Shown here in pieces: positions 32,553 to 61,402 of a stretch of 64,000 nt of DNA; the first letter of the stretch is position 1; each line of letters begins with the position of its first letter. Origin of the DNA: Rhizobium sp. Q54 (GTDB lineage: Bacteria > Pseudomonadota > Alphaproteobacteria > UBA828); contig CAMDDO010000004.1 of the NCBI GenBank assembly GCA_945892755.1, positions 3,099 through 67,098 of the forward strand. The letters are read 5' to 3'. The position numbers and the translations under genes were made by a program. Below the pieces are notes generated by a model. It made no database searches. It had not been told where the DNA came from and saw only the letters and a program-made list of their open reading frames with translations.

Positions 32553-32916
32553 GCGAAAACCACCCCGTCGGTTTGCGGTCGGTCCGAAGGGGGCACAGGC
32601 GACGCTCGCCCATTGTGCCGACGTCGCGCTCGAGCCTGACGAGATGGTCAGCTTCGTTACCGCGAGCGGCACCGAGTTCGACGTGGTGCGCAAGGCCTGG
32701 GGCTATTACGCGACGCCCTCGCTCAATGCGCGACTGCCCGAGAAGGGCCTGCGGCCGGCCCTGGTCGGCAGCACGACGCGGCGTTATGTATTGCTGGCCG
32801 AACCCGCCAGGCTCGATGAATTCCACGCCTATCTGAAGAGTCAGCACATGACGGTCATCGCCTGGCTCGATGTCGACGAGGTGGTGTCGGTGAAATCGGC
32901 CAGTGAGCATTCCTGA
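32539..32916 (+). CDS. small (125-aa) uncharacterised protein, tandem paralog A
   Basis: GGAGG RBS 7 nt upstream, 14-nt overlap with the upstream gene. No known motif. Confidence 0.5.
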   Translation: MDVRERKPPRRFAVGPKGAQATLAHCADVALEPDEMVSFVTASGTEFDVVRKAWGYYATPSLNARLPEKGLRPALVGSTTRRYVLLAEPARLDEFHAYLKSQHMTVIAWLDVDEVVSVKSASEHS

Positions 32917-32940: not shown

Positions 32941-33297
32941 ATGAAGGCCAAGCTGAGAAGCGAGCCGCGCCGCTTCACGCCGCTTGTGGGCCTCGAGATC
33001 CGCGACTGCGGCGCTATCGAGCTCGGTATCGACGAGCAGATCACGGTTACGACCGAGACGGGCATCGGCAACGACATCGTCCGCAAGGAGTGGGGCTTCT
33101 ACCTCTCGAACTCGCTGAACGCCAATCTCACCGCCAAGGGTTTCAAGACCGCGCTCGTCGTGAGCCATGCCAGCACCCCGCCGCGCACTTATCTCAACCT
33201 CGTCGAGCGCGACAAGATGGCGGCATTCGAGGCGTATCTGCGCGCGTTCAACGCGCGTGTCGCCTGTTGGCTCGACGAATGGCCGACCTCTGGTTGA
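32941..33297 (+). CDS. small (118-aa) uncharacterised protein, tandem paralog B
   Basis: Aligns colinearly with paralog A (VRKxWGxYxxxSLNAxLxxKG..xALV.....RxYxxLxE...xxxFxAYL.....xxxWLD). Confidence 0.5.
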   Translation: MKAKLRSEPRRFTPLVGLEIRDCGAIELGIDEQITVTTETGIGNDIVRKEWGFYLSNSLNANLTAKGFKTALVVSHASTPPRTYLNLVERDKMAAFEAYLRAFNARVACWLDEWPTSG

Positions 33298-38535: not shown

Positions 38536-39800
38536 TGCGAAACACCACACTTGCCATCAATGGTGGCGCGCCGACCATAGATCGATCGTTCCCGCCCTAT
38601 CGAACAATCGGTGAGGCCGAAGAGCGCGCGGCGCAACGCGTGCTACGCTCTGGCGTGTTGAGCGCGTTCTATGGTTCGATCGGCGATAATTTTCTCGGTG
38701 GCCCTGAGGTTAAACGCTTCGAGGCGGCCTGGGCGGCGCATTTTCAAGTGCGCCATGCGGTCTCGATGAACAGCGCGACGAGCGGGTTGATTGCGGCCGT
38801 GCAGGCACTCGGGCTTGGGCCGGGCGATGAGATGATCGTGCCGCCTTTTAGCATGATCGCGTCGGCCACGGCGGCGACGATCAACGGCGCGACACCGGTC
38901 TTCGTCGATATCCGCCCTGATATTTTCACGCTTGATCCAGCCATGGTCGAAGCCGCCATCACGCCACGCACCAAGGCGATCATGGTGGTCAATCTATTTG
39001 GCCAGCCGGCGGATCTCGATGCGCTGATCGCACTGGCCCGGCCGCGCGGCATCCGCGTGATCGAGGACAACGCGCAAGCCCCCGGCGCGCTCTATCACGG
39101 CCGTCAGGCTGGCACGATCGCCGATATCGGCATTTTCTCGCTCAATTGCCACAAAACGATCCAGACCGGCGAAGGGGGCTTTGCCTGCACCAATGACGAT
39201 GACCTGGCGTTGCGGCTTCAACTGATTCGCAATCACGGCGAGGCGGTGGTACGCGAGCTTGGCTATCGCAACGCGCCGGAGCGGATCACCGGATATAACT
39301 TCCGTCTGGGCGAGATCGAAGCCGCGATTGGCTATGAGCAATTGGCGAAGCTCGATGCCCTCACGCGGCCGCGCCAGCGTCTTGCCGCCTTCTTTGCCGA
39401 GCGCCTCGCGGCTCTGCCAGGCCTTTCCGTCCCCAAGGTCGAAACCGGGCGCAGTCACGTCTATTACGTCCATGCGCTGAAGCTTGATTCAAGGCGCGCG
39501 GGTTTCTCGCGGCGTTCCTTGGTTCGCGCGCTCGGCGCGGAGGGGCTCGAGGCCTATGAGGGCTATTGCAAGCCGCTCTATCTCGAACCGTTATTTTCGA
39601 ACAACGCGCGCAATCACGCCGGCCTTTGTCCGGTCACCGAACGGCTCCATGAGAGCGAATTGTTCTTTCATCCCTGGCTCTATGAGGCGATCGAGCCAAA
39701 GGCCGAATTGATCGTGCGAGCGTTCGAGAAAGTTTGGGATAATGCGACCGCGCTCGCCGCGCTTGATGATGATGGACGACGTGCTGTTCGCCGCCGCTGA
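38535..39800 (+). CDS. DegT/DnrJ/EryC1-family PLP sugar aminotransferase, copy 2
   Basis: FSLNCHKTIQTGEGG PLP-lysine region. Confidence 0.85.
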   Translation: MRNTTLAINGGAPTIDRSFPPYRTIGEAEERAAQRVLRSGVLSAFYGSIGDNFLGGPEVKRFEAAWAAHFQVRHAVSMNSATSGLIAAVQALGLGPGDEMIVPPFSMIASATAATINGATPVFVDIRPDIFTLDPAMVEAAITPRTKAIMVVNLFGQPADLDALIALARPRGIRVIEDNAQAPGALYHGRQAGTIADIGIFSLNCHKTIQTGEGGFACTNDDDLALRLQLIRNHGEAVVRELGYRNAPERITGYNFRLGEIEAAIGYEQLAKLDALTRPRQRLAAFFAERLAALPGLSVPKVETGRSHVYYVHALKLDSRRAGFSRRSLVRALGAEGLEAYEGYCKPLYLEPLFSNNARNHAGLCPVTERLHESELFFHPWLYEAIEPKAELIVRAFEKVWDNATALAALDDDGRRAVRRR

Positions 39801-40872
39801 ACCCGGTGGCGCCAATGTGCTGGCGAGCTTCCACGCCGGCGCGAAGCGTCGCTATCGGGCGTGTCCGGCATGGGCAACGCCGGGCGCAAGCCCCGTGTTC
39901 GAGGCCGCGGGCCTCAAAGTCGAGCGGCTCGAGGCCTTGCCGTCGGTCGCGGAGGTCGAACGGCGCTGGGCCGCGATCGAGAAGCCGGGCGCGGTTGTCA
40001 CGGGCACCTCGCTCGATGGCACGCTCGAAGCCACGCTCTGGCGCCTCGCCGCGCGCGATGGCGTTCCCGCGCTTGCCTGGATCGATCAATGGATGAACCT
40101 CGATCATCGATTTCGAAAGGGCCGCCCGGCCTGGGTCGCCGCGCTCGACGCGGCACAGCGCGATGCGCTGATCGCAATAGGCTTTGAGCATGACCGCGTC
40201 ATTTTGGGCGGCCATCCGCATCTTCACGCCATGATGTCGTGCCCGCTCGACGCCGCGCCTCATACCGATCGAGAAGGCATACAAACCGTCCTCTTTGTGA
40301 GCGAGTCCTATACCGAGGACTATCGCCTCGGCAGACTAAGCCCGCTTGGCTATGACGAACATGAGGTGTTCGACATCGTGGCCCATGGGATTGAGGCCGC
40401 CAAGCGCGCAGACCCAGACCGGCGCATCGATCTCGTGGTCAAATTTCATCCGCTCGAAGGCGAGCCGCGTCGGTTCATCGAACGCCTGGAATCAAGGCCG
40501 TGGCCCAAGAATGTTACCGCGCGTTGGTTGCCGGGCCCGGCATCGGGGCGTGAGGCCGCGGCGGCGGCTGATCTCGTCATCGGAATGAGTTCGATCTTGT
40601 TGCTTGAGGCGCTCCTAATGGAGCGACCTGTGCTCAGCCTGACGCCGGGGCATGAGGGCGAGGATCCCTTCATCGCGAGCCGGCTTGGCGCGGTGCATGC
40701 CGCTCATGAACGCGAGGCCGGGATTGTTCTTGTGCGCCGCGCCCTTGTCGAACCGGGCTTTCGTGCCGCGGCGCTTGAGCGCCAAAAGCGCTTCCTCGAT
40801 GCTATGCCCGAAGATGGCTCGGCCCTGGTCGTTGCTTGGCTCGATCGCGCGGGAACCCATGCCGGCGGCTGA
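39766..40872 (+). CDS. GT-B-like protein with K.HP motif (KpsC/KpsS/TagF-like), copy 2
   Basis: DLVVKFHPLEG then IGMSSILLLEALLMERPVL, resembling the C-terminal half of Capsule_synth/TagF transferases. Low certainty. Confidence 0.4.
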   Translation: MMMDDVLFAAAEPGGANVLASFHAGAKRRYRACPAWATPGASPVFEAAGLKVERLEALPSVAEVERRWAAIEKPGAVVTGTSLDGTLEATLWRLAARDGVPALAWIDQWMNLDHRFRKGRPAWVAALDAAQRDALIAIGFEHDRVILGGHPHLHAMMSCPLDAAPHTDREGIQTVLFVSESYTEDYRLGRLSPLGYDEHEVFDIVAHGIEAAKRADPDRRIDLVVKFHPLEGEPRRFIERLESRPWPKNVTARWLPGPASGREAAAAADLVIGMSSILLLEALLMERPVLSLTPGHEGEDPFIASRLGAVHAAHEREAGIVLVRRALVEPGFRAAALERQKRFLDAMPEDGSALVVAWLDRAGTHAGG

Positions 40873-42547: not shown

Positions 42548-43771
42548 ATGACGTTTCTGCCCTATGGTCGCCAGCAGATCGATGACGACGATATCGCCGC
42601 CGTCACGGCGGTGCTGCGCGGCGATTGGCTCACCACCGGCCCAGCGGTCGAGGCCTTCGAGCGCGCGTTTGCTGAAAGAGTGGGCGCGCCTTATGCCGTC
42701 GCCTGCTCGAGCGGCACAGCGGCACTGCACCTTGCAATGCTCGCGCTTGGGTTCGGCCCGGGCGACATCGCGATCGTGCCCGCACTTACCTTTGTCGCGA
42801 CCGCTAATGCCGCGCGCTATGTTGGCGCAGACGTGGTCTTCGCCGATGTCGAGCCCGCGACCGGGCTGATGGGGCCGGCACATTTGAGCGACGCCATAGC
42901 GCAAGCGCACCGCATCTTTCCGACGAGTCGTGTCCGGATCGCGCTGCCCGTGCATCTGAATGGCCAAGCGTGCGACATGGCGGGCCTCGCGCGCATTGCA
43001 GATGCCGAGGGAATTGCGCTGGTCGAGGACGCTTGCCATGCCCTGGGCGGCATGGCGGGCGCTGCGCCGGAGGATCGTATTGGCGCGTGCCGACACAGCG
43101 CCATGGCCACCTTTTCGGGACATCCGGTCAAAACGATTGCGATGGGTGAAGGTGGTGTGGTGACCACGCGAGACGGGGCGATCGCCGCAAAACTACTCCG
43201 ACTGCGCGCGCATGGCATTACGCGCGAGTCGTCGCGCTTCACTGAACGGGTACAGGCCTTTGACGGCGACGGGCAGGTGAATGCCTGGTATCACGAGCAG
43301 GTCGAGCTGGGCTTCAATTATCGGGCGAGCGACCTGCATTGTGCCCTCGGCCTGAGCCAGCTCAAGAAGCTCGATCGTTTCATCGCGGCGCGTGATCGGT
43401 TGGTCGGGCACTATCGAAAAGCGCTGGCGCCTTTTGCACCTATTGTCCGACCACTCGGTCTCGCCGGTCACGGAACGCCGGCTTGGCATTTGTTCGTCGC
43501 GCTGATCAATTTCGATGCCGCCGGCATCTCACGCAACACGACGATGGCGCGACTGAAGGCCAAGGGAATTGGCACGCAGGTTCATTATTTGCCGGTCAAT
43601 CGCCAGCCTTATTACCGCGCGCGCTATGGCGTGACCACGTTGCCGGGCGCCGATGCCTATTATGCCCAAGCGCTCTCTCTGCCGCTTCATGCAGAAATGA
43701 CAGAAAACGACGTCGACCGCGTGCTCGTTGCGCTGGGCGAGATACTTGGGCAATCGGGGCGATCGACATGA
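42548..43771 (+). CDS. pseC: UDP-4-keto-6-deoxy-sugar aminotransferase (PseC/DegT family)
   Basis: DegT fold, TFSGHPVKTIAMGEGG PLP lysine region, immediately after pseB. Confidence 0.85.
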   Translation: MTFLPYGRQQIDDDDIAAVTAVLRGDWLTTGPAVEAFERAFAERVGAPYAVACSSGTAALHLAMLALGFGPGDIAIVPALTFVATANAARYVGADVVFADVEPATGLMGPAHLSDAIAQAHRIFPTSRVRIALPVHLNGQACDMAGLARIADAEGIALVEDACHALGGMAGAAPEDRIGACRHSAMATFSGHPVKTIAMGEGGVVTTRDGAIAAKLLRLRAHGITRESSRFTERVQAFDGDGQVNAWYHEQVELGFNYRASDLHCALGLSQLKKLDRFIAARDRLVGHYRKALAPFAPIVRPLGLAGHGTPAWHLFVALINFDAAGISRNTTMARLKAKGIGTQVHYLPVNRQPYYRARYGVTTLPGADAYYAQALSLPLHAEMTENDVDRVLVALGEILGQSGRST

Positions 43772-45744
43772 CGGCCGCAGACCAGAATCGGGTCGGGGCG
43801 ATTGTCGAGTCCGCCTTGGGTATGGACCACGCGATTGCCCGATTTGGCGAGGCCAATACGCTGATCTCGACAACGTCGCCGTTCGTGCTTGAGAAATGCC
43901 GAATTCTTGGGCGCCGCTGCTTCGCGATCGATGGTTCATTGCCGCAAGCCAAGGCCGATTCGATCGGTTACGCATCACTGCGCGCGACGAGCGATATCAC
44001 GGATCTCGTGGATTCCGCCGCGACAAGTGATGAGCCGCCCTTTGGTTGGGCCTTGCTGCCCCAGCTGCACCGGATGCTGACTGCCTTTCTTTACAAGGCC
44101 CATCTACTTGATCACGTGATGCGGGAGTGCGCGAATGACGGACGCTTGTGGACCGTCGGTCATTCCGAAGCGCGAGCGGTGCGCGGCTTCAACGTCATGA
44201 TCAACCGTTTCGACACGCTTTTTACAGTGCTGGGTGCACGGCGTGGCATTCCACATATCGGACTAGAAGCGCCAGAGCCGTCGGGCGCTGCTGAAACCGG
44301 CGATTTTATGCGGCCATCAATCTGGACTCGGATGGTCACTGTGATGAATGCGCCGGCGACGAGCGTGTTCTATCGGCTGTGGCGCGGGCCTCTGAAGGGT
44401 CGTGCCTTGGCGCTTGTGCCGGGGTGGAACCGTAATCCGATCGTTGTCGTGCACCGTGGCAACGAAATGATCGAAGAAATCCTACCGAGGCTTCTCTTGC
44501 GCGGCTGTGAAATTCGCCGCTTGCCGCGCTTGCATTCTACGTCCGACGAGGTTGATGCGCCCCCGACGGTCAGCCTCGAAGCCATCACGGCTCGGATTAA
44601 ACGCCGCTGTGTCGATGCCGAGTTAGGCTGGAGCGATACCCTCCAGATCGCGGCGATGCAGGCTGGGGAGCGCCTGCGCACGGCGTTGCGTCATGGTCCG
44701 AGCTTGTGGCGCTCCACCGAGGTTTGTGTCGAAGAATTGAAGCGCGACGCGCGCGGTCGGCCGCTCGGTCTTTTGACCAATGCCATGGCCAGTGGGCAAG
44801 AGCGCCTGCTGCGCCATGCGCTCGACCGACATGGTATTCAATCGTTCGTTGCAGAGCACGGCGTTGCGCCAGGTTTGAGCCCGATGCATGAAGCGCTCTA
44901 CGCCATCGACAAGGTGGCAAGCCTGCGGCGTACGCTGCTCTATACGCCGGCGCAACACCGTCTTTATGAGCGATCCATCGGCGTGGCGGAGGCGGCCAAT
45001 TGTCCGGTGGTTGGTGTGCCGCGCCTGGTTCGCAAAATCGGCATGCGGCCAATTCAGCGCGTCGCGGTGCGTGCCGCGCTCGGTGCCAAAGGTCGCCTCG
45101 CGATATGGTGCACCGCGCTTTATCCGAACAATTTTCAGTTTCTGCCGCATTATTGGCGTGACACGCCGTACCACGAAATAAGGCGTCGCGTGGTCACCGA
45201 CGTCTTTGGCAAAATTTCCGACCATGTCGTGCTCAAGCTCTACCCAACCTATCGCTATGTCGATCCTGATCCGCTTGCTGGGCTTATGACTCTACCGCCC
45301 AATTGTCGGGTCGAGCAATTCACCGATTTTCGCAATCTGCGCGCAGCGGCGGACCTGATTGTCGTCGATGGCCCCGGCAGTGTGATGGCGTGGGCGTGGA
45401 GCACGAATGTGCCGTTCATCTACCTCGAAACCGGCATGTATGGGCTCGACGCAACGGTGCGACAGGCGCTAGAACGCAGTGCCTTTGTGGTGGACGTCGC
45501 CGACCAGGATTGGGCGGACCGATTCTTGGCGTTGCTTCGGCTCGACCATAGGGCGCTGGTGGCGCGTTTCGCGGCAAAAAGCGCGGAGCGCGAGAGTTTC
45601 GCGACGGAATATGCGCTTGGTCCCAAGGGCGGGGCCGGCCGGCTGGGCAGTGCCTACATTCATGCGAGCTTGACGAAGCGAGAAGGACAGGGCGTGCAAA
45701 CGGTCGCGCTCAGCAACGAACCGCGCGCGGAACCGCGGTCATGA
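43768..45744 (+). CDS. large (658-aa) uncharacterised protein, possibly TagF/Capsule_synth-like transferase
   Basis: C-terminal LKLYPTYRYVD...IVVDGPGSVMAWAWSTNVPFIYLETG resembles the LYAPTWR region of CDP-glycerol glycerophosphotransferase-like GT-B enzymes. Weak. Confidence 0.4.
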   Translation: MTAADQNRVGAIVESALGMDHAIARFGEANTLISTTSPFVLEKCRILGRRCFAIDGSLPQAKADSIGYASLRATSDITDLVDSAATSDEPPFGWALLPQLHRMLTAFLYKAHLLDHVMRECANDGRLWTVGHSEARAVRGFNVMINRFDTLFTVLGARRGIPHIGLEAPEPSGAAETGDFMRPSIWTRMVTVMNAPATSVFYRLWRGPLKGRALALVPGWNRNPIVVVHRGNEMIEEILPRLLLRGCEIRRLPRLHSTSDEVDAPPTVSLEAITARIKRRCVDAELGWSDTLQIAAMQAGERLRTALRHGPSLWRSTEVCVEELKRDARGRPLGLLTNAMASGQERLLRHALDRHGIQSFVAEHGVAPGLSPMHEALYAIDKVASLRRTLLYTPAQHRLYERSIGVAEAANCPVVGVPRLVRKIGMRPIQRVAVRAALGAKGRLAIWCTALYPNNFQFLPHYWRDTPYHEIRRRVVTDVFGKISDHVVLKLYPTYRYVDPDPLAGLMTLPPNCRVEQFTDFRNLRAAADLIVVDGPGSVMAWAWSTNVPFIYLETGMYGLDATVRQALERSAFVVDVADQDWADRFLALLRLDHRALVARFAAKSAERESFATEYALGPKGGAGRLGSAYIHASLTKREGQGVQTVALSNEPRAEPRS

Positions 45745-50248: not shown

Positions 50249-51751
50249 ATGAAGTGGTTCAAGCAGGTCGAGGCCGGGCGGCGCGCCTATCACGCGGACG
50301 CCACGCTCAATAGCGTGCACCGCTCCTCGCTCCTTGTGCCGAGGCTCGATGGCGCGGCGGTCGATATCAGTTTCCTCAACCACTTCCTCCTGAAACGCGG
50401 CTATGGCGAGGTCGCCTGCCGCGTGACCAAAATCGACGGCGCCGGCAAGCGCATTCAATCTCGGTTTATCAAGGTCGACGCGCCAAGGGCGTATACGTTC
50501 GCACTCGGCGACGAGGCGCATGACGAGGCGGCCGACTTCATGGTCGAGTTTTTCGCCGCCGACAATCTGTTCATCCCGTTTCCCGCCGTGATGGTGAACC
50601 ATCGCGGCCCGCGCTTCCTCAACACCGTGCATGCCTATAATCGCGTGCTGAATGACGTGTTCGAGGACGACAGCATCAACACGAAGCCGCAGCTTGAGGC
50701 CGCGATCGATGTGCGCCTCGATGACGCGGCGTCGACCATGCTGGTGGTCCAGGCCGGGCAACAGCGCTGCGCGGGCGCGCTCGATATCCGGCTCAAACAG
50801 GGCGCGGCGGAGCATCGCAAGGACGTGCCGATCGATGTGCCGCGCTTCGGCCATCGGGAGATCGCGCTCGGCGATTTGTTCGCGCATCTGGGCACGATAC
50901 AGGGCGGCATTCTCACGGTCGGACAGCCCCAACAGACGATGTTTTTCGGGCGTCTTCTGGTTGGCCAGCGCGCGCGCGACGGCGCGTTCTCGGCCAATCA
51001 CAGTTATTATGATTCATCCGATGTCGCCGAATATTGGGACGATTCGCGACCCTCGATCAGGCTCTACCCCTATATCGCCGAGCTTGAGACCTTGATCCGG
51101 TTCTACCCGATCCAATCGCCCGGCCGGCTCAATATCGAGATCGTCGCTCATGGCGCGGATGGCGCGCGCCTGTCGACCCACGAGGCCGGCGAATTGGTTT
51201 CGCCCGGCACGCGCCATCTCGACCTATCGGTCAGCGGGCTTTTGCGCCGGCAGGGCGCGCGCGCCGCCGATGTCTCGGCCTTCGCCGTCAGCGCGCGCCC
51301 GATCGATGGCAAGACGCCGACACGCATCAACCATCAGCTCGTCTATCGCGATGGCGGGCTTGAATCATCGATCAACATGTCGCTGACCAATCCGAATATT
51401 TTCGCCCCCGCCGGCAAACGCGGCTATGCCTGGGGTCAGTTGCCGGTCGGGACGGCGATCGATTCGTGGCTCGGCATCACCACCAACACGCCCGAGGGCG
51501 AGGCGTGCGCCGTCGCGCTCTCGATCTATGACGAGAGCGGGCTCCGCGCGCGGCGCGACCTCTCCTTGCGTCCGGGCGCCGCCCATGTCCTCCGCCTGCA
51601 TGACATCTTGCCCGATGGCGCGCTCGCGCGCGCGGACACCGCGCTCGATTATCTCTGGTTCACGCTGGAATCAGCCCGGGCGGATGTGTTCGGCTATGCC
51701 GTCACCAGGCACAAGCTGTCGCGGCAATGCTCGGGCGAGCATGCGTTCTGA
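50249..51751 (+). CDS. hypothetical 500-aa protein, no recognisable domain
   Basis: Tightly packed between the O-MT and pseG; no known motifs. Confidence 0.5.
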   Translation: MKWFKQVEAGRRAYHADATLNSVHRSSLLVPRLDGAAVDISFLNHFLLKRGYGEVACRVTKIDGAGKRIQSRFIKVDAPRAYTFALGDEAHDEAADFMVEFFAADNLFIPFPAVMVNHRGPRFLNTVHAYNRVLNDVFEDDSINTKPQLEAAIDVRLDDAASTMLVVQAGQQRCAGALDIRLKQGAAEHRKDVPIDVPRFGHREIALGDLFAHLGTIQGGILTVGQPQQTMFFGRLLVGQRARDGAFSANHSYYDSSDVAEYWDDSRPSIRLYPYIAELETLIRFYPIQSPGRLNIEIVAHGADGARLSTHEAGELVSPGTRHLDLSVSGLLRRQGARAADVSAFAVSARPIDGKTPTRINHQLVYRDGGLESSINMSLTNPNIFAPAGKRGYAWGQLPVGTAIDSWLGITTNTPEGEACAVALSIYDESGLRARRDLSLRPGAAHVLRLHDILPDGALARADTALDYLWFTLESARADVFGYAVTRHKLSRQCSGEHAF

Positions 51752-51769
51752 GATCGTCGAAATTGCGCG

Positions 51770-52789
51770 ATGAACGCGCCGCTCGCGTTGTTTCGGCTTG
51801 ATGCGACGCCTTCGCTCGGCGTCGGCCATTTGGCGCGCTGCCACGTGCTGGCCGAGGCGTTGAAGGGAGAGGGCTGGCGCACGCGCTTCGCGGTCTCGGC
51901 CGAAACCGCGTCGAGCGTCGGCGCGCCGCGTGACGCGATCATCGTGCCACCCGAATCGATGGACGAGCCGCGCGCGCTTGGCGACGCGGAGCCAAAGGGA
52001 TGCGATCTTCTGGTGGTCGATCATTATGGCCGCGACGCGGCGTTCGAACGCGCCTGCCGGCCCTGGGCGCGGCATATTCTCGTGCTCGACGATCTGGCCG
52101 ATCGGGCCCACGACGCCGACGCTCTGCTCGACCCCACACCAGGCCGGAATCCGGCGGATTACGCCAACCTCGTGCGGACCGACACGCGCCTCCTGCTCGG
52201 GCCGAGCCATGCACTGCTCGACGCGCGCTTTGCCGCCGCCCGACCCATGGCGCTGGCGCGGCGTCGCGCGGGCGGTGCGGCCGCGCGCGTTCTCATCAGC
52301 CCGGGCGGCACCGATCCGGCCGATGTGGCGAGCCTCGCGCTCGATGCCCTTGTCGGCCTGGAGCCGGCGCTCGTCGCCGACGTGGCGCTGCTGCCGAGCG
52401 CGCCGCATCTTGCGCGCACGCGCGCACGCGTCGGACCGCGCGTCACCTTGCATTGTCCCGCCGAGGACATGGCGGCTTTGATGGTCGAGGCCGATGTCGC
52501 GATCGGCGCAGCGGGCGGCAGCGCCTGGGAGCGTTGCTGCCTCGGCCTGCCAATGCTGCTCGTCATCACGGCCGAGAATCAGCGGCTCAATGCGCGACGC
52601 CTGGAAGACGCAGGCGCCGCTCTTGTCGTTGGTGAGGCAAGCCACGTGACGGTTGAGAGCTTTCGCCGAGAGATCGTCGAGTTGGTGAGCGATGCGAGTC
52701 GCCGTCGACGCATGGCCGAAGCGGCGGCATTATTATGCGATGGCGAAGGCGTACGCCGCGTGCTCTCGATCATCAAGGAAGGCGTATGA
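51770..52789 (+). CDS. pseG: UDP-2,4-diacetamido-2,4,6-trideoxy-beta-L-altropyranose hydrolase
   Basis: FRLDATPSLGVGHLARCHVLAEAL N-terminus typical of PseG. MurG-like GT-B fold. Confidence 0.8.
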   Translation: MNAPLALFRLDATPSLGVGHLARCHVLAEALKGEGWRTRFAVSAETASSVGAPRDAIIVPPESMDEPRALGDAEPKGCDLLVVDHYGRDAAFERACRPWARHILVLDDLADRAHDADALLDPTPGRNPADYANLVRTDTRLLLGPSHALLDARFAAARPMALARRRAGGAAARVLISPGGTDPADVASLALDALVGLEPALVADVALLPSAPHLARTRARVGPRVTLHCPAEDMAALMVEADVAIGAAGGSAWERCCLGLPMLLVITAENQRLNARRLEDAGAALVVGEASHVTVESFRREIVELVSDASRRRRMAEAAALLCDGEGVRRVLSIIKEGV

Positions 52790-53847
52790 GCCTACCCTCG
52801 CTGCAGCCAGTCGCCATTGCCGGCCGCACCATCGGGCCCGGTTCGCCGCCTTACGTTGTTGCCGAACTCTCGGCCAACCACAAGGGCACGCTCGATCACG
52901 CCATCGCGATCATGCGCGCGGCCAAGGCGGCCGGGGCGGATGCGATCAAGCTGCAAACCTATACCGCGGATACCATCACGATCGCGCACAATGGCCCTGG
53001 CTTCCGCATCGAGCAGGGCCTATGGCGCGGCCGCACGCTGCATGAGCTTTATCAAGAGGCTCACACGCCATGGGTGTGGCATGACGCGCTGTTCGCGGAA
53101 GGCCGCGCGCTCGGCCTGCCGGTGTTCTCGACACCGTTCGATGCTAGCGCGATCGCCTTTCTCGAGCCTTTCGATCCGCCGGCCTACAAGATCGCGAGCT
53201 TCGAGCTGATCGATCTCGGTCTTATTCGCGCCGTCGCGGTGACTGGCAGGCCGCTCATCCTATCGACCGGCATGGCGAGTTATGCCGAAATCGAGGAAGC
53301 GGTCGGCGCTGCGCGCGGCGCGGGCGCGCGCCAGATCGTGCTTTTGCATTGCACCAGCGGTTATCCTACGCCGCCCGATGAGGCCAATCTCCGCACCATT
53401 CCGCATCTCGCCGAGAGCTTTGGCGTGCCGATCGGCCTGTCTGACCACACGCTCGGCATCGGCGTCGCGCTCGCCGCGGTGGCGCTCGGCGCCTGCCTGA
53501 TCGAGAAGCATTTGACGCTCCGCCGCGCCGATGGCGGGCCGGATGCCGCGTTCTCGCTCGAACCCGACGAACTCAAGAGCCTGGTCGACAATGCGCGCCT
53601 CGCTCATGCCGCGCTCGGCATGGTTACCTATGAGCGGCGCGCGAGCGAAGCCGGCAATATAGAATTTCGCCGCTCGCTCTATATCGTGCGCGACATGAAG
53701 GCCGGTGAACCGCTGACGCCCGAGACGCTGCGCTCGATCCGCCCGGGCCATGGCCTCCATCCGCGCCATTACGAGGCATTGCTCGGCAAGCGCGTGACGC
53801 GCGATGTCGCGCGCGGCACGCCGATGGCATGGGAATTGATCCGCTGA
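52786..53847 (+). CDS. pseI: pseudaminic acid synthase
   Basis: VVAELSANHKGTLDHA (PseI-type ELSANH motif), GLSDHT, C-terminal SAF domain. Confidence 0.9.
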   Translation: MSLPSLQPVAIAGRTIGPGSPPYVVAELSANHKGTLDHAIAIMRAAKAAGADAIKLQTYTADTITIAHNGPGFRIEQGLWRGRTLHELYQEAHTPWVWHDALFAEGRALGLPVFSTPFDASAIAFLEPFDPPAYKIASFELIDLGLIRAVAVTGRPLILSTGMASYAEIEEAVGAARGAGARQIVLLHCTSGYPTPPDEANLRTIPHLAESFGVPIGLSDHTLGIGVALAAVALGACLIEKHLTLRRADGGPDAAFSLEPDELKSLVDNARLAHAALGMVTYERRASEAGNIEFRRSLYIVRDMKAGEPLTPETLRSIRPGHGLHPRHYEALLGKRVTRDVARGTPMAWELIR

Positions 53848-54593
53848 TGGGCAAGACCGTCGCGATCATCCAGGCGCGCATGACCTCGAGCCGCCTACCC
53901 GGCAAGGTGCTGGCCGATCTCGGCGGCAAGCCGCTGATCGAGCGCATGATCGCGCGCGTGCGCCGCGCCCGCGCGCTGGACGCGATCTGGCTCGCTACCA
54001 CCGCCAAGACGACCGACGATCCGCTCGCGACCTTGTGCGACCGGCTCGGCGTACCCGTTCATCGCGGCGATGAGCATGATGTTCTGGCGCGCTTTCTCGG
54101 CGCCGCGCGGGCCGCCGAGGCCGATATCGTGGTCCGGCTCACGGCGGATTGTCCGATGAGCGACCCGGCGCTGATCGACGAGATCGTCGCCGATTATGGG
54201 AAGGGTGGCGCCGATTACGTCTCCAACGTGTTGGTGCGCACCTATCCCGATGGCCTCGACGTCGAGGTATTTTCATGCGCCGCGCTCGAAGACGCGGCGG
54301 CCAACGCGACGGAGCCGTTTCATCGCGAGCACGTCACGCCCTGGTTGCAAACCGGCTTTCGGCCCGGCTTGGCGACCGGGCGCTTTCGCGTGCGTCATGT
54401 CGTGAACGACATCGATCTCGGCGTCATGCGTTGGACGGTCGATGAGGCCGAGGATCTCGACTTAATTCGAAAGTTGTTCGCGGCCCTGCCCGAGGGCTTC
54501 GCCTGGCGCGACGCGCTCGCGCTGGTCAGCGTCAATGGCGAATTGGCCCGCCGCTCGCGCGTGCCCGAGGCTTATCTGAAGGCGGCGTCATGA
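53847..54593 (+). CDS. pseF: pseudaminic acid cytidylyltransferase-family protein (copy 3 of SpsF/PseF-like)
   Basis: VAIIQARMTSSRLPGKVL, directly after pseI. Confidence 0.7.
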   Translation: MGKTVAIIQARMTSSRLPGKVLADLGGKPLIERMIARVRRARALDAIWLATTAKTTDDPLATLCDRLGVPVHRGDEHDVLARFLGAARAAEADIVVRLTADCPMSDPALIDEIVADYGKGGADYVSNVLVRTYPDGLDVEVFSCAALEDAAANATEPFHREHVTPWLQTGFRPGLATGRFRVRHVVNDIDLGVMRWTVDEAEDLDLIRKLFAALPEGFAWRDALALVSVNGELARRSRVPEAYLKAAS

Positions 54594-56377
54594 AGGTCCG
54601 AGCGGTCATATGCGAGGACGCCGAGCGGCTCTTCGCCTGGTTGAACGCGCCCGATCGGCAAGCGGCGAGCCTGGCGACGAACGCGCCGGTCGCTTGGGCC
54701 GATCATCTGGCGTGGCTCGAGGCCCGGCTCGACGATCCGTGTAGCGCGCTCTGGATGGCGGAGATCGACGACAAGCCGGTCGGCCAGGCGCGATTGCAGT
54801 GGGTGGAGCCCGGGCTCGAAGTTTCGCTCTATGTCGCGCCTGAGGCACGCCGGCAGGGTGTCGGCCGCGCGTTGCTCAATCACGCGGCGCGGGCCGGGGC
54901 GCGTCTTTGGCCGGGCCGGGCGCTGCGTGCCAAGGTGCGTCCCGAGAACGCGGACTCGCTCGCGCTATTTCATCGCGCGGGCTATCGGGAAATCGCGCGC
55001 CCGCCCGATCATGTTTTGCTGAGCCTCGACCCCGCGCTCGATAACATGCCAATGCCAGCGCGCCGGTTCGGGCGTTCGCTCGCGCTGCATCAACGCGCGC
55101 TCGACACCATCCCGACCGGCTCGCAGACCTTCTCGAAATCGTCGTGGAATTTCGTCAAGGGCGCGACGCCTTTGATGCTCGAGCGCGGCGTGGGCGCGCG
55201 CGTGTGGGATGTGGACGGCAATGACTATGTCGATCATGTGCTTGGCCTGCTCGCGATCGTGCTCGGCTATCGCGATGCGACGGTCGATGGCGCGATCCGC
55301 GCGCAACTTGAGCGCGGCATCTCGTTCTCGCTCGCGACCGAGCTCGAAGCCGCGCTGGCCGAGCGCCTGCGCGCGCTCATTCCCTGCGCTGAAATGGCGC
55401 GCTTCGGCAAGAACGGGTCGGATGCCACCTCTGGGGCGGTTCGCCTCGCGCGCGCCCATACCGGGCGCGACAAGATCGCGTTGTCGGGCTATCACGGCTG
55501 GCATGATTGGTATATCGGCACCACCGCGCGCCGGCTCGGCGTGCCCGACGCGGTCCAGGCGCTTTCGACCAGCTTTCCCTTCAACGACGCCGATGCGCTT
55601 GAGCGGCTCTTGGTCGCCGAACCGAACGCCTATGCCGCGGTCATTCTCGAACCCGCCGGTATCGAGGCGCCGGCGCCAGGCTTTCTCGAACGCGTGCGCG
55701 CGCTGACCGAGCGTTTTGGCGTGGTCTTGGTATTCGACGAGATCATCACCGGCTTTCGCGTCGCGCTCGGCGGCGCGCAAAAGCATTACAATGTAGTGCC
55801 CGATCTCGCCTGTGTCGGCAAGGCGATGGGCAATGGCATGCCGATCTCGGCGGTGGTCGGTCGCAAGGCGATCATGCGGCGCATGGAGGATATCTTCTTC
55901 TCCGGCACGTTCGGCGGCGAGACGCTCTCGCTCGCCGCCGCGCTCGCCACCATCGATGCGCTCGAACGCCAAGACGGCATCGCGCGGATGCACGCGCTTG
56001 GCGCACGATTGCGCGCTGCGCTTGGCGCTCTCTTGACGCGGCATGGGCTGAGCCAGGCATTCAAGGCGACCGGTCCCGATTGGTGGCCGCGCCTCGCCGT
56101 CATGCCCGACGAGCGTACGCCGGGGCCCGTTCTGCAAAGCTTGATGCAACAGGAATTGGCCGAGGACGGTGTCCTGATCGGCGCCGGGCTCACGCTCAAC
56201 CTCTGCCTCGCCCACGATCACCCGGCGATCGAGGCGATGACGCTCGCGTCCTTCGATCGCGCCATGGCGCGCTGCGCCGAGGCGTTGGCGCGGCCCGATC
56301 CGGCGACGGCGCTACGCGGCGAACCCATCCGGCCGATCTTCCAGGTGCGGCCGATCCGACCGGCGACGCGCGCCTGA
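54590..56377 (+). CDS. GNAT acetyltransferase :: class-III aminotransferase (glutamate-1-semialdehyde aminomutase/HemL-like) fusion
   Basis: N-terminal ~140 aa GNAT (RRQGVGRALL). C-terminal FGKNGSDATSGAVRLARAHTGRDKI, VFDEIITGFRV, DLACVGKAMGNGMPISAV match the HemL family. Confidence 0.8.
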   Translation: MKVRAVICEDAERLFAWLNAPDRQAASLATNAPVAWADHLAWLEARLDDPCSALWMAEIDDKPVGQARLQWVEPGLEVSLYVAPEARRQGVGRALLNHAARAGARLWPGRALRAKVRPENADSLALFHRAGYREIARPPDHVLLSLDPALDNMPMPARRFGRSLALHQRALDTIPTGSQTFSKSSWNFVKGATPLMLERGVGARVWDVDGNDYVDHVLGLLAIVLGYRDATVDGAIRAQLERGISFSLATELEAALAERLRALIPCAEMARFGKNGSDATSGAVRLARAHTGRDKIALSGYHGWHDWYIGTTARRLGVPDAVQALSTSFPFNDADALERLLVAEPNAYAAVILEPAGIEAPAPGFLERVRALTERFGVVLVFDEIITGFRVALGGAQKHYNVVPDLACVGKAMGNGMPISAVVGRKAIMRRMEDIFFSGTFGGETLSLAAALATIDALERQDGIARMHALGARLRAALGALLTRHGLSQAFKATGPDWWPRLAVMPDERTPGPVLQSLMQQELAEDGVLIGAGLTLNLCLAHDHPAIEAMTLASFDRAMARCAEALARPDPATALRGEPIRPIFQVRPIRPATRA

Positions 56378-57282
56378 TGGACGAGCCTCGCCCGACCTGG
56401 CTCAGCCTCGGCACGGCCGGGCTCGGCATGGATTACGGCGTTGTCGCGCCGACCAGGCAACCTTCCGATGCGACGGCGCACGCATTGCTTGAGCGCGCCT
56501 GGGCCCTCGGTATTCGCTCGATCGACACCGCGCGCGCCTATGGCGAGGCCGAGGCTCGCATTGGGTCGTGGAGTGGGCGTTCGGGGAATCGGCCCTTCAT
56601 CGTGACCAAGATTCCCGCCCTCCCTGACAACGGCGGCGAACGCATCATCGAGCAATCGCTGCAGGCCTCACTCGCGGCGTTGCGCGCCGATCGGGTTGAG
56701 CTCTGCCTGCTGCACCGCGCGGGTGACCTCCATCGACCCGGCATCGCCGCCAAACTGCGTGAGATTGCCAGCAATGACCTCATCGGCGGTTTCGGTGTAT
56801 CCATCTATGAAGGCGCTGAGATTGAAGCAGCCCTCAGTATTGAAGGGCTCGCCGCGGTTCAGGCGCCGGTCAGCCTCTTGGACCGCCGGCTTGTCGAGTC
56901 GGGAGTGCTGGGGCGGGCCAAGGCGCGTGGCGTTCTCGTTTTCGCGCGCAGCGTGTTTCTCCAGGGGGCCTTGTTTGTCGCTCCAGAAAAATTGCCCTCG
57001 TTCCTCCGCCCGCTCGCCGAACCCTTGTCGCGCTTGACCACGCTTGCCGAGAGCTCGGGCGTCTCACCCATGGCCTTGTCACTTGCCTATTTGCGCGCAA
57101 GCGGCGTGATCGACTCGCTGGTGATCGGCGCGACGACATCCGAAGAGCTCGAAGCGGATGTGCGGCTGGCGAACCAATCCTTAGACCCAGAGCTGATTGA
57201 AAGGGCGTGCGCCATCGTACAGATCGTTGACCCTGCCTGCCTCGACCCGCGCCGCTGGCCGGCGTCGATCGCCGTCCCATGA
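56377..57282 (+). CDS. aldo/keto reductase
   Basis: LDTARAYG, AKR TIM-barrel layout. Confidence 0.8.
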   Translation: MDEPRPTWLSLGTAGLGMDYGVVAPTRQPSDATAHALLERAWALGIRSIDTARAYGEAEARIGSWSGRSGNRPFIVTKIPALPDNGGERIIEQSLQASLAALRADRVELCLLHRAGDLHRPGIAAKLREIASNDLIGGFGVSIYEGAEIEAALSIEGLAAVQAPVSLLDRRLVESGVLGRAKARGVLVFARSVFLQGALFVAPEKLPSFLRPLAEPLSRLTTLAESSGVSPMALSLAYLRASGVIDSLVIGATTSEELEADVRLANQSLDPELIERACAIVQIVDPACLDPRRWPASIAVP

Positions 57283-57316: not shown

Positions 57317-60300
57317 ATGCGATCAAACATGAAGACGAATTTGACGCCCCTGCCGCCCGAAGTCCGAAACATGTCGATTCCGTCCGCCGATGTGCTTGGT
57401 CGGCTGGTCTATGTCGTCGGCAGCGCGCGCGGCGGTACCACCATGCTCGGCGAATGTGTCGCACTCCACGATCGCATTCTCGCTTTGCCGGAGAACAGTA
57501 ATTTTCTCGGCCAAGTCTGGCGTTATGCGCGCAAAGTGGACGACCGCATGCTACGCCTGCTCATCGCGCAGCCGCGTTACTATAAGCGGCGAGAAGCGAT
57601 GGCACGGCTTGGCGACAGCGCGGGTCGCGCGCTTCTGGGTCACATTACGCGCTTGGTCAGGCAACGCGACCTCGCCGGCCTCTACACGCTGTACCCGATC
57701 GTCCATGCGCTTGTCGGCGAGGAAGGTCGCGATATCGGCGCGCTCCGTGCCTGGGCAGACAAAGCGACGGATACCAGGGGCCTAGGCGCGCTCGAGCGGG
57801 CCTTCCCCGAGCTTCGCGTCGTCTTTATCGTGCGTGACCCGAGAGCCTGCGTCGCTTCTTTGACGGCGAGAGCCTTCGCACGCGAGGCGCGCGAGCAGGG
57901 GTCCGACCGGCTCGACCTCCTCGTGGACCAGGCCCTTCATTGGCGCCGGGTAACCCAGGACATGCTTCACCATGCGCGCCGTCTTGGCTCGCGCGCCATT
58001 ACAGTGCGCTACGAAGATTTCGTTCGAGAGCCGGTCGAGCAGCTTAACCGTATCTTCGAGTTCGCCGTCGGCGAGAGACTATCGGCCGCCGAGCTGGAAC
58101 GGCAGCTCGGCGGTATCCCTTATTTCGCCAGCGCCAGCGGCGGCGCCTGCGCGACAGGCATCAGGACCGACTCGATCGACCGCTGGCGTAAGACCCTGCA
58201 GGACGATGAGCAGGGCCTGATCGAGGCGCTCTGCGGGCGCCTCGCGCGCCAACTTGGTTACGACACGTCCTCGGTCTCGCCGCTCGTCACGGCAGTTCGA
58301 CTGGGCCGAGTCGAGCAGTCACGCCGGCAAAAGCTCCTTGCTTTCGCCAGACTCGGCTATCTGGCTATCAGCGTGCCGATCAAGCTCCGAAGCCCGCTTC
58401 GGGCCGACACGTTCGCCATGCTGCCTTTGCCCGATCGAAAGCCGCGCCCGGCCGAGCAACCTCAGCCACCACGAAATGTCCGTGAGTCGAGCCCGGTGTC
58501 GCCCGCCGCTCCGCCGCCCGAAACGGCGGCTCGCGAACGCCCGTCTATCCGTCGGATCTTGGACTTTGCTAACGATATCGGATTGCCCCGAGCCCGCGTC
58601 GCCGTCCTCCTGCTGTTTCATTTGGTCGGAACTTTGTTCGAGAGTTTCGGTCTTGGCATGTTGCTGCCGGTCTTTGATCTAATCCAGAAAGGCGGCGACG
58701 CGTCCGCGCTTGCGGCACAGTCGAGCCTTTGGCGCGTGATCGTTGGCGTCTATGGCGCCTTCGGGCTCGACGCTAGCCTGCTGGCGCTACTGATTACGAG
58801 TTTCCTTGCCATCTTGGCGCGCCAGGCGATGTTTTATGTCCGGATGCTCTACACCGCAAGGGCATCCCTCGCAATTGGGCGCACCATCCGGACACGTGTG
58901 TTTGGCGGTATCCTTGGCGCACGCTTGGCGGTTCTTGAAGGCGATCGGCGCGGTCATATTTTGAACGACATCACGACCGAGGCCGATCGAACCACGCAAT
59001 ATGCCATCAGTGTCATTGCGCTGGGCGGCCATCTGGTTTTGGGATTGGTCTATTTCGTCATGATGCTGCTGCTGTCGCCATCGATGACCGGCGCCGCAGT
59101 CGCCGTCCTGGCGGTCGCCGCCCTGCCGGCGGTACGGTTGACGCGGCATTCCGCGACGGTGAGCCGCGACATCGTCGATGCCAATCGCGCGCTAATCGAC
59201 TTCTTCGCCCAGCGATTAAGTGCCATTCGTTTCGTTCGGCTCAGTGGCGCCGAGACCGCCGAACGGGCGGAGCTCGACCGTCGAGTGACCCGTCAGAACA
59301 AGCGCGTCTATCAAAGCAACGTACTGCTTGCCCGCACCAAGGTGGTGATCGAGCCGATCGTTGTTGCCGCAGCTTTCGTCTTCCTGTTTGTCGGATATTC
59401 CGTGTTTGGTGTCGGCCTCGAAGAGCTCGGGCTGTTCTTACTAATCCTGCTCCGATTGGTGCCAGTCATGCGCGAGGTAATGATCTTGCGTAGTGGCATG
59501 GCGCTGACTCGACATAGTCTAGTGACGCTGCAGCGTCGTTTCAGCGCGCTGGATCAGTCTCCCGAGGACGCGGGCGGCACGCGTGCGCTTGGCGTGCTCC
59601 GCCAAGGCATCCGCTTTGAGCACGTATCGTTCAGCTATGGGACCACCGCCGCGCCCGCGCTTAATGACGTCAGCGTGACCCTACCTGCGCGGCGCTTGAC
59701 CGCCCTGGTCGGTCCCTCGGGCAGCGGCAAGTCGACCTTGATCGATTTGTTGCCGCGCTTGCGCGAGCCGACCGGGGGCGTCGTGCTGTTCGATGGCATC
59801 CCCGCGTCGGAGTTTTCGTTACAGAGCCTTCGCGCGGGGATCGCCTATGCGCCGCAATCGCCGCAACTGTTCGATACCACGGTCATTGAGCATATCCGCT
59901 ATGGTCGGCCTGACGCGAGCGTTGCCGACATTGAACAGGCGGCCCGGCATGCGGGCGCTCATGATTTCATCGCCGCCCTGCCAATGGGCTATGAGACCAG
60001 GCTTGGCGAGAGCGGTGGTTTGCTTTCGGGCGGGCAGCGCCAGCGCGTCGATCTCGCGCGCGCGCTGGTCAAGAACGCGAGCGTGCTCATTCTCGACGAG
60101 CCGACCAGCCAGCTCGACGCCGAATCGGAGGAAATCTTCAAGGCCAGCATTCGGCGCCTTCGTGACGCCGGCCAGCACACGATCGTCATGGTCGCGCATC
60201 GCCTGTCGACCGCGGCGATTGCCGATCAAATCGTCGTCCTGATCCGGGGCTGTGTCGTCGATGTCGGATCGCACCGCGAATTGCTGGTGCGTGGCGGCTG

Positions 60301-60409
60301 GTATGCCGAAGCCAACCGCCTACAGCAGAATGACAATTTCGGAGAGCTTGGTGCTTCGGCGGAATTTGGCGGCGCGGCCGGCATTGGCCGAGGCCGTCCG
60401 TTTCTATAG
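57317..60409 (+). CDS. sulfotransferase :: ABC exporter (6 TM + ATPase) fusion protein
   Basis: N-terminal 5'-PSB VVGSARGGTTML and 3'-PB RDPRACVAS PAPS-binding motifs, Pro-rich linker, TM domain. Then Walker [36 protein letters not shown]. Confidence 0.8.
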   Translation: MRSNMKTNLTPLPPEVRNMSIPSADVLGRLVYVVGSARGGTTMLGECVALHDRILALPENSNFLGQVWRYARKVDDRMLRLLIAQPRYYKRREAMARLGDSAGRALLGHITRLVRQRDLAGLYTLYPIVHALVGEEGRDIGALRAWADKATDTRGLGALERAFPELRVVFIVRDPRACVASLTARAFAREAREQGSDRLDLLVDQALHWRRVTQDMLHHARRLGSRAITVRYEDFVREPVEQLNRIFEFAVGERLSAAELERQLGGIPYFASASGGACATGIRTDSIDRWRKTLQDDEQGLIEALCGRLARQLGYDTSSVSPLVTAVRLGRVEQSRRQKLLAFARLGYLAISVPIKLRSPLRADTFAMLPLPDRKPRPAEQPQPPRNVRESSPVSPAAPPPETAARERPSIRRILDFANDIGLPRARVAVLLLFHLVGTLFESFGLGMLLPVFDLIQKGGDASALAAQSSLWRVIVGVYGAFGLDASLLALLITSFLAILARQAMFYVRMLYTARASLAIGRTIRTRVFGGILGARLAVLEGDRRGHILNDITTEADRTTQYAISVIALGGHLVLGLVYFVMMLLLSPSMTGAAVAVLAVAALPAVRLTRHSATVSRDIVDANRALIDFFAQRLSAIRFVRLSGAETAERAELDRRVTRQNKRVYQSNVLLARTKVVIEPIVVAAAFVFLFVGYSVFGVGLEELGLFLLILLRLVPVMREVMILRSGMALTRHSLVTLQRRFSALDQSPEDAGGTRALGVLRQGIRFEHVSFSYGTTAAPALNDVSVTLPARRLTALVGPSGSGKSTLIDLLPRLREPTGGVVLFDGIPASEFSLQSLRAGIAYAPQSPQLFDTTVIEHIRYGRPDASVADIEQAARHAGAHDFIAALPMGYETRLGESGGLLSGGQRQRVDLARALVKNASVLILDEPTSQLDAESEEIFKASIRRLRDAGQHTIVMVAHRLSTAAIADQIVVLIRGCVVDVGSHRELLVRGGWYAEANRLQQNDNFGELGASAEFGGAAGIGRGRPFL

Positions 60410-61402
60410 ATCGCGGAACCGAATCAGGCGCTGGCGATCTTCGCACCAAAGGGCGAGGGCCGCACATTTCAAAGTCCCCACCATGTCGAGTCGGCGCGCC
60501 CCTTGCGACAACTCCGGAAATCCATCGATGCAGGCCTGCAGCCGATAGTTCGGAATGCGGCTCGATAGATGGTGGACATGGTGCAGCCCAATATTGGCGG
60601 TCAGCCATTGCAGCGGCTTCGGCAATTTGAGGTAGGAGCTGCCCTGAAGCGCAGCTTCCTCGAAGTCCCACTGCTCTGGGGTGCGCCAGTAGCCGTCTTC
60701 GAATTGGTGCTGAACAAAAAAGAGCCAGACCCCGATCGTCGAGGCGACCACCATGATCGGCAACTGGATCTTCACAAGATCAGTCGGGCCGATGAGAGCG
60801 ATCATCGCCGTGATCAGACCTGCGAGCGCAAGATTGGTCGCTAGGATGCTGATCAGGGCGCTTCGCCGCTGTGCCGGGCGTTCGATCGGCAAGCGTCGCA
60901 GGATGACGAACAGGATCGTCGGCACCACCACAAACAACATGACCGGATTGCGATAGAGCCGATAGGCGCGTCTGCGCCAGGGCGAAAGCGCAAGGTATTC
61001 GCGAACCGTGAGCGTCTTGATGTCGCCGACGCCCCGACGACCGAGGTTGCCCGAGGTCGCGTGATGGGCGGCATGGGTGCTGCGCCAATAGTCATAGGGC
61101 GTCAGCGTCAAGACGCTTAGCGCGCGGCCGACCAGGTCATTGGCCGAACGCGTGGCGAAGTAAGAACCGTGGCCGCAATCATGCTGGAGGACAAAAAGCC
61201 GGATAAGAAAGGCGGCCGCCGGTATGGAGAGCAAAAGCGTCATCCAATAGGCGAGATCCAATGTCAGCCACATCGCCGTCCACAGAGCGCCGAACGCGAC
61301 CAAGGTGACCAGCAATTGGGCGACGCTTTGACCTAAGGTCGGGACGGCATAGGCCTTCAGGCGTGCCGAGAGGCCGACTGTTCGATCGACAGTCGGGCCC
61401 AT
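60404..61402 (-). CDS. membrane fatty acid desaturase
   Basis: Three His boxes HDCGH, HAAHH, HHVHH. Confidence 0.85.
   Translation of the reverse strand: MGPTVDRTVGLSARLKAYAVPTLGQSVAQLLVTLVAFGALWTAMWLTLDLAYWMTLLLSIPAAAFLIRLFVLQHDCGHGSYFATRSANDLVGRALSVLTLTPYDYWRSTHAAHHATSGNLGRRGVGDIKTLTVREYLALSPWRRRAYRLYRNPVMLFVVVPTILFVILRRLPIERPAQRRSALISILATNLALAGLITAMIALIGPTDLVKIQLPIMVVASTIGVWLFFVQHQFEDGYWRTPEQWDFEEAALQGSSYLKLPKPLQWLTANIGLHHVHHLSSRIPNYRLQACIDGFPELSQGARRLDMVGTLKCAALALWCEDRQRLIRFRDL

Follow-up and report, generated by a model that had tools for sequence, protein, structure and literature searches.

We analysed a 64,000-nucleotide stretch of DNA from Rhizobium sp. Q54 (contig CAMDDO010000004.1 of assembly GCA_945892755.1), hereafter termed the window, and found that one of its genes (57317-60409, + strand) encodes a sulfotransferase (ST) domain joined to an ATP-binding cassette (ABC) exporter at the end of a gene cluster for nonulosonate sugars. 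We propose that the tethered ST sulfates a nonulosonate glycoconjugate and that the same homodimeric protein then flips or exports the product; we assign this reading a probability of about 0.6. Sulfation is rare among bacterial surface glycans, and little is known of its genetics. To our knowledge, sulfated nonulosonic acids are known only for eukaryotic sialic acids. A full-text search of the literature found no description of an ST-ABC exporter fusion or of sulfated pseudaminic (Pse) or legionaminic (Leg) acid.

The open reading frame (ORF) of 1030 aa was uninterrupted. An alternative start at 57329, a Met four codons downstream, gives a protein of 1026 aa (P0001) and is the choice of gene callers elsewhere. 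Pfam hidden Markov models detected three domains in the order Sulfotransfer_3 (aa 31-250), ABC_membrane (aa 465-706) and ABC_tran (aa 782-931), and GC content at the three codon positions was approximately 0.70/0.47/0.73, which is a coding signature in the ST, linker and ABC parts alike. The full-length AlphaFold (AF2) model showed a mean predicted local distance difference test (pLDDT) score of 81, with confident modules at aa 10-352 and 411-1012. An earlier note on this DNA had described a single continuous ORF of 1030 aa in which a Pro-rich linker connects an ST domain with the motifs GGTT and RDPR to an exporter with six transmembrane helices and intact Walker A/B, signature and H-loop motifs; each of these elements was recovered in our analysis.

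Such an ORF could also result if an error in sequencing or assembly, such as a frameshift or a missed stop, had spuriously merged two genes, and the nearest outgroup (L005-L007) does carry two separate genes. However, an identical fused protein was encoded on a separate 28.8-kb ENA contig (L092), and continuous fused ORFs of 1008-1039 aa with 70-78% identity were found in L001 and L002 (two assemblies), L093 and L012, which came from different projects. The fusion was thus present in five other independent assemblies, i.e., six with the window, and the 70-78% identical forms represent four lineages. Because the assemblies are independent and their diverged linkers are all in frame, a frameshift or assembly artefact is excluded for practical purposes; in addition, the coding GC signature continues through the linker.

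The ST domain (aa 10-352; 57344-58372, +) passed the gathering threshold of Sulfotransfer_3 (PF13469), scoring 79.9 bits where 27 are required (E 4.1e-22), and its AF2 model showed a pLDDT of 81 and a predicted template-modelling (pTM) score of 0.83. Alignment to the corresponding loops of the CurM ST and of tyrosylprotein sulfotransferases (TPSTs) located the 5'-phosphosulfate-binding (5'-PSB) loop at G35-SARGGTT-M43 (57419-57445, +). The family alignment located the 3'-phosphate-binding (3'-PB) motif at R173-D-P-R176...S181 (57833-57859, +), which HMMER aligned with 'vRhPysvieS' of the CurM ST and 'vRDgRasvhS' of TPST1. G35, A37, R38, G39, G40, R173, D174, P175, R176 and S181 were invariant across an alignment of 14 family members; that is, the key residues for binding 3'-phosphoadenosine 5'-phosphosulfate (PAPS) are kept throughout. 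The polar residues R69, K149, E233 and R289 were likewise invariant in fused and standalone members. In a Foldseek search with the ST-domain model, the first 50 matches, including all 26 with E <= 0.001, were all PAPS-dependent sulfotransferase-fold proteins, and the best among those listed were TPST1/2 and the CurM/OLS ST (TM-scores of 0.53-0.67, identity 17-21%). As judged from the predicted model, these matches fix the fold of the domain and not its acceptor. Glu59 was aligned with the Glu of the CurM ST 'PPE' motif, which is the proposed base. Around aa 59-62 (57491-57502), the fused clade and P0121, a standalone ST, read 'LPENSNF', and the other 12 members read 'LPGMTHF' or 'LPYMTHF' (Gly/Tyr59, His62); it is possible, from this alignment, that the catalytic base migrated within the ST family.

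Hydropathy analysis revealed six hydrophobic transmembrane segments, all between aa 428 and 726, and none in aa 1-420. Because the ST domain has no transmembrane or signal segment and the exporter has six transmembrane helices, the ST domain lies in the cytoplasm with the ATPase. PAPS is found and made in the cytoplasm. The two modules are separated by a Pro/Ala/Arg-rich stretch of 53 residues (aa 356-408; 58382-58540, +) with pLDDT < 50 in the full-length model, which we read as a flexible, disordered tether; Pro accounted for 16 of the 85 residues of aa 346-430. The linker was poorly conserved, and its length and sequence varied among fused relatives, with the frame always kept. The tether was absent from the split ST/exporter pair in L005.

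The transmembrane domain of the exporter half (aa 411-745; 58547-59551, +) comprises an elbow helix (aa 411-420) and six long transmembrane helices, as indicated by Pfam, hydropathy, AF2 and Foldseek, and is followed by a nucleotide-binding domain (NBD; aa 764-1012; 59606-60352, +) with pLDDT > 90. The two domains matched the profiles ABC_membrane (PF00664, E 6e-14) and ABC_tran (PF00005, E 4.4e-31). A motif scan of the NBD found Walker A (GPSGSGKS, aa 799-806), the Q-loop (APQ, aa 845-847), the signature LSGGQ (aa 903-907), Walker B with the catalytic Glu (VLILDE, aa 923-928) and the H-loop (AHR, aa 960-962), all intact. The top Foldseek matches of the ABC half were MsbA, ABCB8 and Sav1866 (TMt ~0.65), and PCAT1 was also among the structural matches; from sequence and model, the ABC half is an ABCB-type (type IV fold) half-transporter. 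MsbA was its best solved half-transporter match both by sequence (E 3e-67) and by structure. However, the MsbA equivalog cut-offs were missed, with 324.7 versus 602 bits and 256.9 versus 867 bits (TIGR02203 / NF008381). Therefore, the description 'MsbA-like' given in the earlier note holds for the fold only, and not for family membership. The HepA-family model NF045513 was also missed (327.5 versus 725 bits), although the alignment covered positions 38-604 of the 610 in the profile, as was the PglK model NF050066 (170.2 versus 1000 bits). Both the ST and ABC domains are genuine and, from their motifs, look catalytically competent.

Next, the distribution of the architecture was assessed by an exhaustive phmmer search with the ST domain against 1.84 billion representative proteins. 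The search gave 3639 matches, 40 of them at E < 1e-30. Among the best 150 of the 3639, nearly all comprised 340-385 aa and stood alone; P0003 was the only representative with the ST-ABC fusion. The retrieved ST-domain matches included 15 long proteins (>= 450 aa), and a local test with the ABC half found an ABC domain in none of them. Within these matches, the fusion therefore appears confined to one 50%-identity cluster. As a separate observation, a 973-aa JGI protein (P0025) with 30% identity to the ABC half has ABC_membrane and ABC_tran domains together with an APH-type kinase domain (PF01636), and may represent a further fusion of a tailoring enzyme with an ABC exporter.

In three JGI contigs (L005-L007), the closest standalone ST, P0121 (56% identical), is encoded directly 5' of an ABC exporter of 614 aa. 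The P0121 stop and the exporter start overlap (GTGA), and over 616 residues this exporter shares 56% identity with the ABC half of the fused protein. Judging from these similarities, P0121 and its neighbour form a split/fused 'Rosetta stone' pair, and we propose that the fusion arose from an ancestral, translationally coupled ST-exporter gene pair. Among GTDB genomes, the ST family was almost confined to alphaproteobacterial metagenome-assembled genomes. We then compared the window's cluster proteins with 14 non-fused ST-family loci using local tblastn. Nonulosonate-associated genes (NeuB, a cytidylyltransferase or a recurring cluster protein) were present at 13 of these loci, the exception being the short L017, and a homologous exporter lay within 10 kb at 8 of them. 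Both gene orders occurred, i.e., ST then ABC in L005 and ABC then ST in L013. In a neighbour-joining (NJ) tree, the exporters from ST loci and the fused exporters clustered together, separate from generic ABC exporters, and the split L005 pair was the immediate outgroup of the fused clade. The link between sulfation and export that the earlier note had drawn is strengthened by the stop/start overlap of the split pair and by the recurrence of ST and exporter as neighbours in nonulosonate clusters.

We hypothesized that the gene product would be a homodimer-forming ABCB-type half-transporter serving as the dedicated exporter or flippase for the product of the upstream nonulosonate (pseudaminic/legionaminic-type) cluster, and that each subunit would bear a cytoplasmic PAPS-dependent ST on a disordered tether of ~53 residues. 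A nonulosonate-containing glycoconjugate, most likely lipid-anchored, would be assembled on the inner leaflet of the cytoplasmic membrane. The tethered ST would O-sulfate the glycoconjugate there, and ATP hydrolysis by the same polypeptide would then move the more anionic product across the membrane. From its length, the tether could in principle allow the ST to move around the transporter on the cytoplasmic side and as far as the membrane interface. Dimerisation is expected by analogy with half-transporters such as MsbA and Sav1866, and the cluster context suggests that the product would be a sulfated nonulosonate glycan or a lipid-linked intermediate. We infer the catalytic activity, the acceptor and its lipid linkage, and the order of sulfation before export. 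A more specific and rather tentative possibility is that the ST family sulfates the nonulosonic acid itself, giving bacterial sulfated Pse or Leg, and that the fused transporter is an end station that would sulfate and then flip the lipid-linked product.

Several observations weigh against the proposal of sulfation followed by export. The first concerns the putative catalytic Glu59, which is not conserved; 12 of the 14 members have Gly or Tyr at this position and His three residues later. The ST domain might then be not an active enzyme but a substrate-recognition or gating module that binds a pre-sulfated glycan or PAP(S) and licenses export. ABC exporters with an accessory recognition domain at either terminus are known, and the carbohydrate-binding module of Wzt and the inactive C39-like domain of HlyB would be analogues. 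However, all PAPS-binding residues as well as R69, K149, E233 and R289 are invariant in fused and standalone members alike, and a second sulfotransferase was not found in the window; we regard a purely recognition role as very unlikely.

In structure, the ST domain is also closest to protein-tyrosine and polyketide sulfotransferases, not to carbohydrate ones. The closest solved structures are TPSTs (Foldseek E 1e-9, TM-scores of 0.53-0.65), and one may ask whether the protein is instead a TPST/RaxST-type tyrosine sulfotransferase fused to a peptide exporter for the secretion of a sulfated peptide, similar to ribosomally synthesized and post-translationally modified peptides. RaxST cooperates with an ABC exporter of the same superfamily, and raxST-raxA-raxB makes and secretes sulfated RaxX in Xanthomonas (bioRxiv 10.1101/442517; PMC4216712). 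However, the C39 peptidase domain (PF03412) gave no match at E <= 0.1 in the fused protein, and the cluster contains no HlyD-type adaptor. The 34-bp gap upstream and the overlapping gene downstream leave no space for an adjacent precursor-peptide gene. Moreover, identity to TPSTs was only 17-21%, polyketide STs scored as well, and all informative family loci were sugar clusters. Peptide secretion is therefore highly improbable.

Further points against sulfation coupled to export come from the loci themselves. The window lacks an initiating phosphoglycosyltransferase, a polymerase, a ligase or oligosaccharyltransferase, an outer-membrane exporter and an APS (adenosine 5'-phosphosulfate)-kinase or PAPS-synthesis gene. 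In addition, at 6 of the 14 non-fused ST loci the ST is found among genes of nonulosonate biosynthesis and lacks an exporter within 10 kb; its neighbours in L008 and L010, for instance, are NeuB, PIG-L and methyltransferase genes. Conversely, P0004 (L003 10001-11938), an exporter of 74% identity, is accompanied by the same conserved cassette of biosynthetic genes and has no ST domain, and tblastn found no separate ST gene within 13 kb in this locus. These six loci and P0004 would fit a protein in which the two halves are merely co-localised, the ST acting on a soluble precursor (a nucleotide sugar or CMP-nonulosonate) or another molecule, and the fusion providing co-expression or stoichiometry with no mechanistic coupling. 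Meanwhile, the covalent tether to the transporter is kept in four diverged lineages, the ancestral pair has overlapping stop and start codons, the ST and the exporter clade adjoin in both gene orders, and membrane anchoring would be of little gain to an enzyme of soluble precursors. Co-localisation alone is thus unlikely.

As P0004 has no ST, sulfation is not a general requirement for export and is unlikely to be an obligatory export signal; from these comparisons, it appears to be an add-on to a dedicated exporter. P0004 nests inside the fused clade (NJ tree, no bootstraps) and keeps a linker-like N-terminus, suggesting that its ST domain was secondarily lost. More probably, the fusion serves to make modification at the point of export efficient and stoichiometric.

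The fused gene is the final gene of the nonulosonate cluster and the sole membrane or transport gene in its ~39 kb. All genes between 21440 and 60409 lie on the + strand, and the preceding aldo-keto reductase gene ends 34 bp 5' of the fused gene on the same strand. Downstream, a convergent fatty-acid desaturase gene (60404-61402, -) overlaps the stop-codon region of the fused gene by 6 bp at its 3' end (60404-60409), leaving no room for a terminator; this arrangement is kept in L001, L002 and L092.

The exporter is preceded by a conserved cassette (50249-57282, +; Pfam, NCBIfam) that encodes, in order, a 500-aa protein of no known family, a PseG-like protein, NeuB, a cytidylyltransferase, a fusion of a GNAT domain with a glutamate-1-semialdehyde (GSA)-aminomutase-like domain, and the aldo-keto reductase. 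The cassette occurred in identical order in L001, L003 and L012 with 66-90% identity. Its GNAT fusion (54590-56377, 595 aa) is a second conserved fusion, in which an N-terminal GNAT is joined to a glutamate-1-semialdehyde-aminomutase-like class III aminotransferase, and was 80-82% identical in the same three loci.

The rest of the nonulosonate cluster (21440-50232, +) was described from profile matches and from recurrence beside the ST family. Together with the cassette, it provides two NeuB synthases (22989, 52735), three cytidylyltransferases (31806, 36692, 53829), PseB, PseC, an FkbH protein (47509), a fusion of MaoC with a short-chain dehydrogenase/reductase (SDR) (46271), a formyltransferase (21440) and a deacetylase (22114), as well as four DegT-type aminotransferases, two AsnB-like amidotransferases, GNATs and methyltransferases. 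A PseB/C/H/G/I/F-like set occurs together (Polysacc_synt_2 at 41449, DegT at 42548, GNAT at 45741, Glyco_tran_28_C at 51770, NeuB at 52735 and CTP_transf_3 at 53829), as assigned at the Pfam family level, which does not decide between Pse, Leg or another stereochemistry. The cluster content suggests at least two differently N-acylated nonulosonates. Two further ORFs in the cluster (32374-32916 and 32941-33297) showed strong coding GC content at third codon positions (0.78 and 0.85) and no Pfam match.

No classical glycosyltransferase was found in the cluster besides the PseG-like protein. A 516-aa protein (35152-36702) showed weak similarity to KpsC/Capsule_synth (Pfam E 0.0095; PDB KpsC E 0.1, in the same region). 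It carries the family-conserved motifs 'F.F/YPL..EPE' and 'VKEH' and recurs beside the ST family in L005, L010, L013, L016, L018, L020 and L021; the 'QxxxKD' motif of KpsC was not seen in it. On this similarity, the protein is a candidate glycosyltransferase (CMP-ulosonate transferase) only. Proteins of 374 (25903-27027), 376 (39742-40872), ~650 (43768-45744) and 500 aa (50249-51751) also recurred in related ST/nonulosonate loci, and a ~636-aa homologue of the ~650-aa protein lies directly upstream of the ST in L010. Where tested, these four proteins had no match in Pfam (E <= 1), NCBIfam or PDB. From their recurrence, they appear to be uncharacterised families tied to the nonulosonate pathway.

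Two other assignments of the cluster were considered and rejected. Its Pse-type genes could belong to a flagellin-glycosylation island; however, the window contained no flagellar or Maf (PF01973) genes, and flagellin glycosylation in the cytoplasm would not be expected to involve an ABC exporter of its own. Likewise, a group 2 capsule or a Wzx/Wzy route was not indicated, as no KpsMT, KpsED, Wzx, Wzy, Wza or Wzc genes were found within the window. The left 21 kb of the window contains housekeeping genes (pyrB, gatCAB, glutathione S-transferases, an ABC importer, a LysR regulator and a Rieske oxygenase); it includes three consecutive glutathione S-transferase genes at 9048-11099 and a gene for a SET-domain protein, a putative lysine methyltransferase, at 11965-12948 (-), ~9 kb from the glycan cluster.

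Fusions of an enzyme with an ABC exporter are already known in the peptidase-containing ABC transporters (PCATs; RaxB, PCAT1, CvaB), which, like the fused protein, join an ABCB-type half-transporter to an N-terminal cytoplasmic enzyme that tailors the cargo just before translocation. What is new is the sulfotransferase as the fused enzyme and its tie to nonulosonate clusters. RaxB acts after the sulfotransferase RaxST (10.1101/442517). In contrast to the PCATs, the fused enzyme here is a PAPS sulfotransferase and not a C39 peptidase, the cargo would be a glycoconjugate and not a peptide, and no adaptor or outer-membrane partner is encoded nearby. The CurM/OLS ST and the TPSTs belong to the same Pfam family, Sulfotransfer_3, and provide the closest solved folds, and the CurM ST is also a domain of a larger multifunctional protein. 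However, their acceptors are a beta-hydroxyacyl group on an acyl carrier protein or a peptide tyrosine, and the partner of the CurM ST is a polyketide synthase module, whereas here it is a transporter.

The MsbA, PglK and HepA exporters share the type IV ABC fold of six transmembrane helices and an NBD, and PglK and HepA are encoded in glycan clusters. These exporters carry no enzyme domain. The clade described here is tied specifically to nonulosonate clusters of Alphaproteobacteria. In the WbdD-Wzm/Wzt system of E. coli O8/O9a, a lipid-linked glycan receives an anionic or small terminal group from a cytoplasmic enzyme, and this step is functionally coupled to ABC export. That modifier, a kinase/methyltransferase, is a protein distinct from the transporter, which has an ABC-2 (type V) fold, and recognition depends on a C-terminal carbohydrate-binding module; here, the fusion is covalent, the fold is type IV and the group would be sulfate, and chain termination by sulfate is not indicated. 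NodH, LpsS and the sulfated capsular polysaccharide (KPS) of Mesorhizobium loti are examples of alphaproteobacterial PAPS-dependent sulfation of an exported Nod factor, lipopolysaccharide and capsule. These rhizobial carbohydrate sulfotransferases are standalone; they are set apart from the fused ST by description and not by sequence. No rhizobial carbohydrate sulfotransferase is known to be joined to its own exporter or to serve nonulosonate clusters in particular. The only case of an ST next to an ABC transporter that we found in the literature is an unexplained small ORF (sulfotransferase) beside wzt in Aeromonas salmonicida (PMC4483657), the architecture of which is unrelated.

In sludge extracellular polymeric substances, sulfate and nonulosonates occur together, and the responsible sulfotransferases could not be found (PMC10483923). 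The locus described here supplies a candidate, i.e., a distinct ST family genomically tied to nonulosonate biosynthesis, and the fusion is unusually direct genomic evidence linking sulfation to a specific exporter. The testable prediction is a sulfated bacterial nonulosonate glycoconjugate. The protein also offers a compact one-polypeptide system for structural study of the hand-off of a lipid-linked glycan from an enzyme to a flippase. If confirmed, the fused ST would be a new cargo-tailoring domain for ABC exporters alongside the PCAT peptidase, and it would predict a new class of doubly anionic (carboxylate and sulfate) bacterial surface sugars, with possible relevance to host mimicry, to recognition by phages and lectins, and to the chemistry of biofilm matrices.

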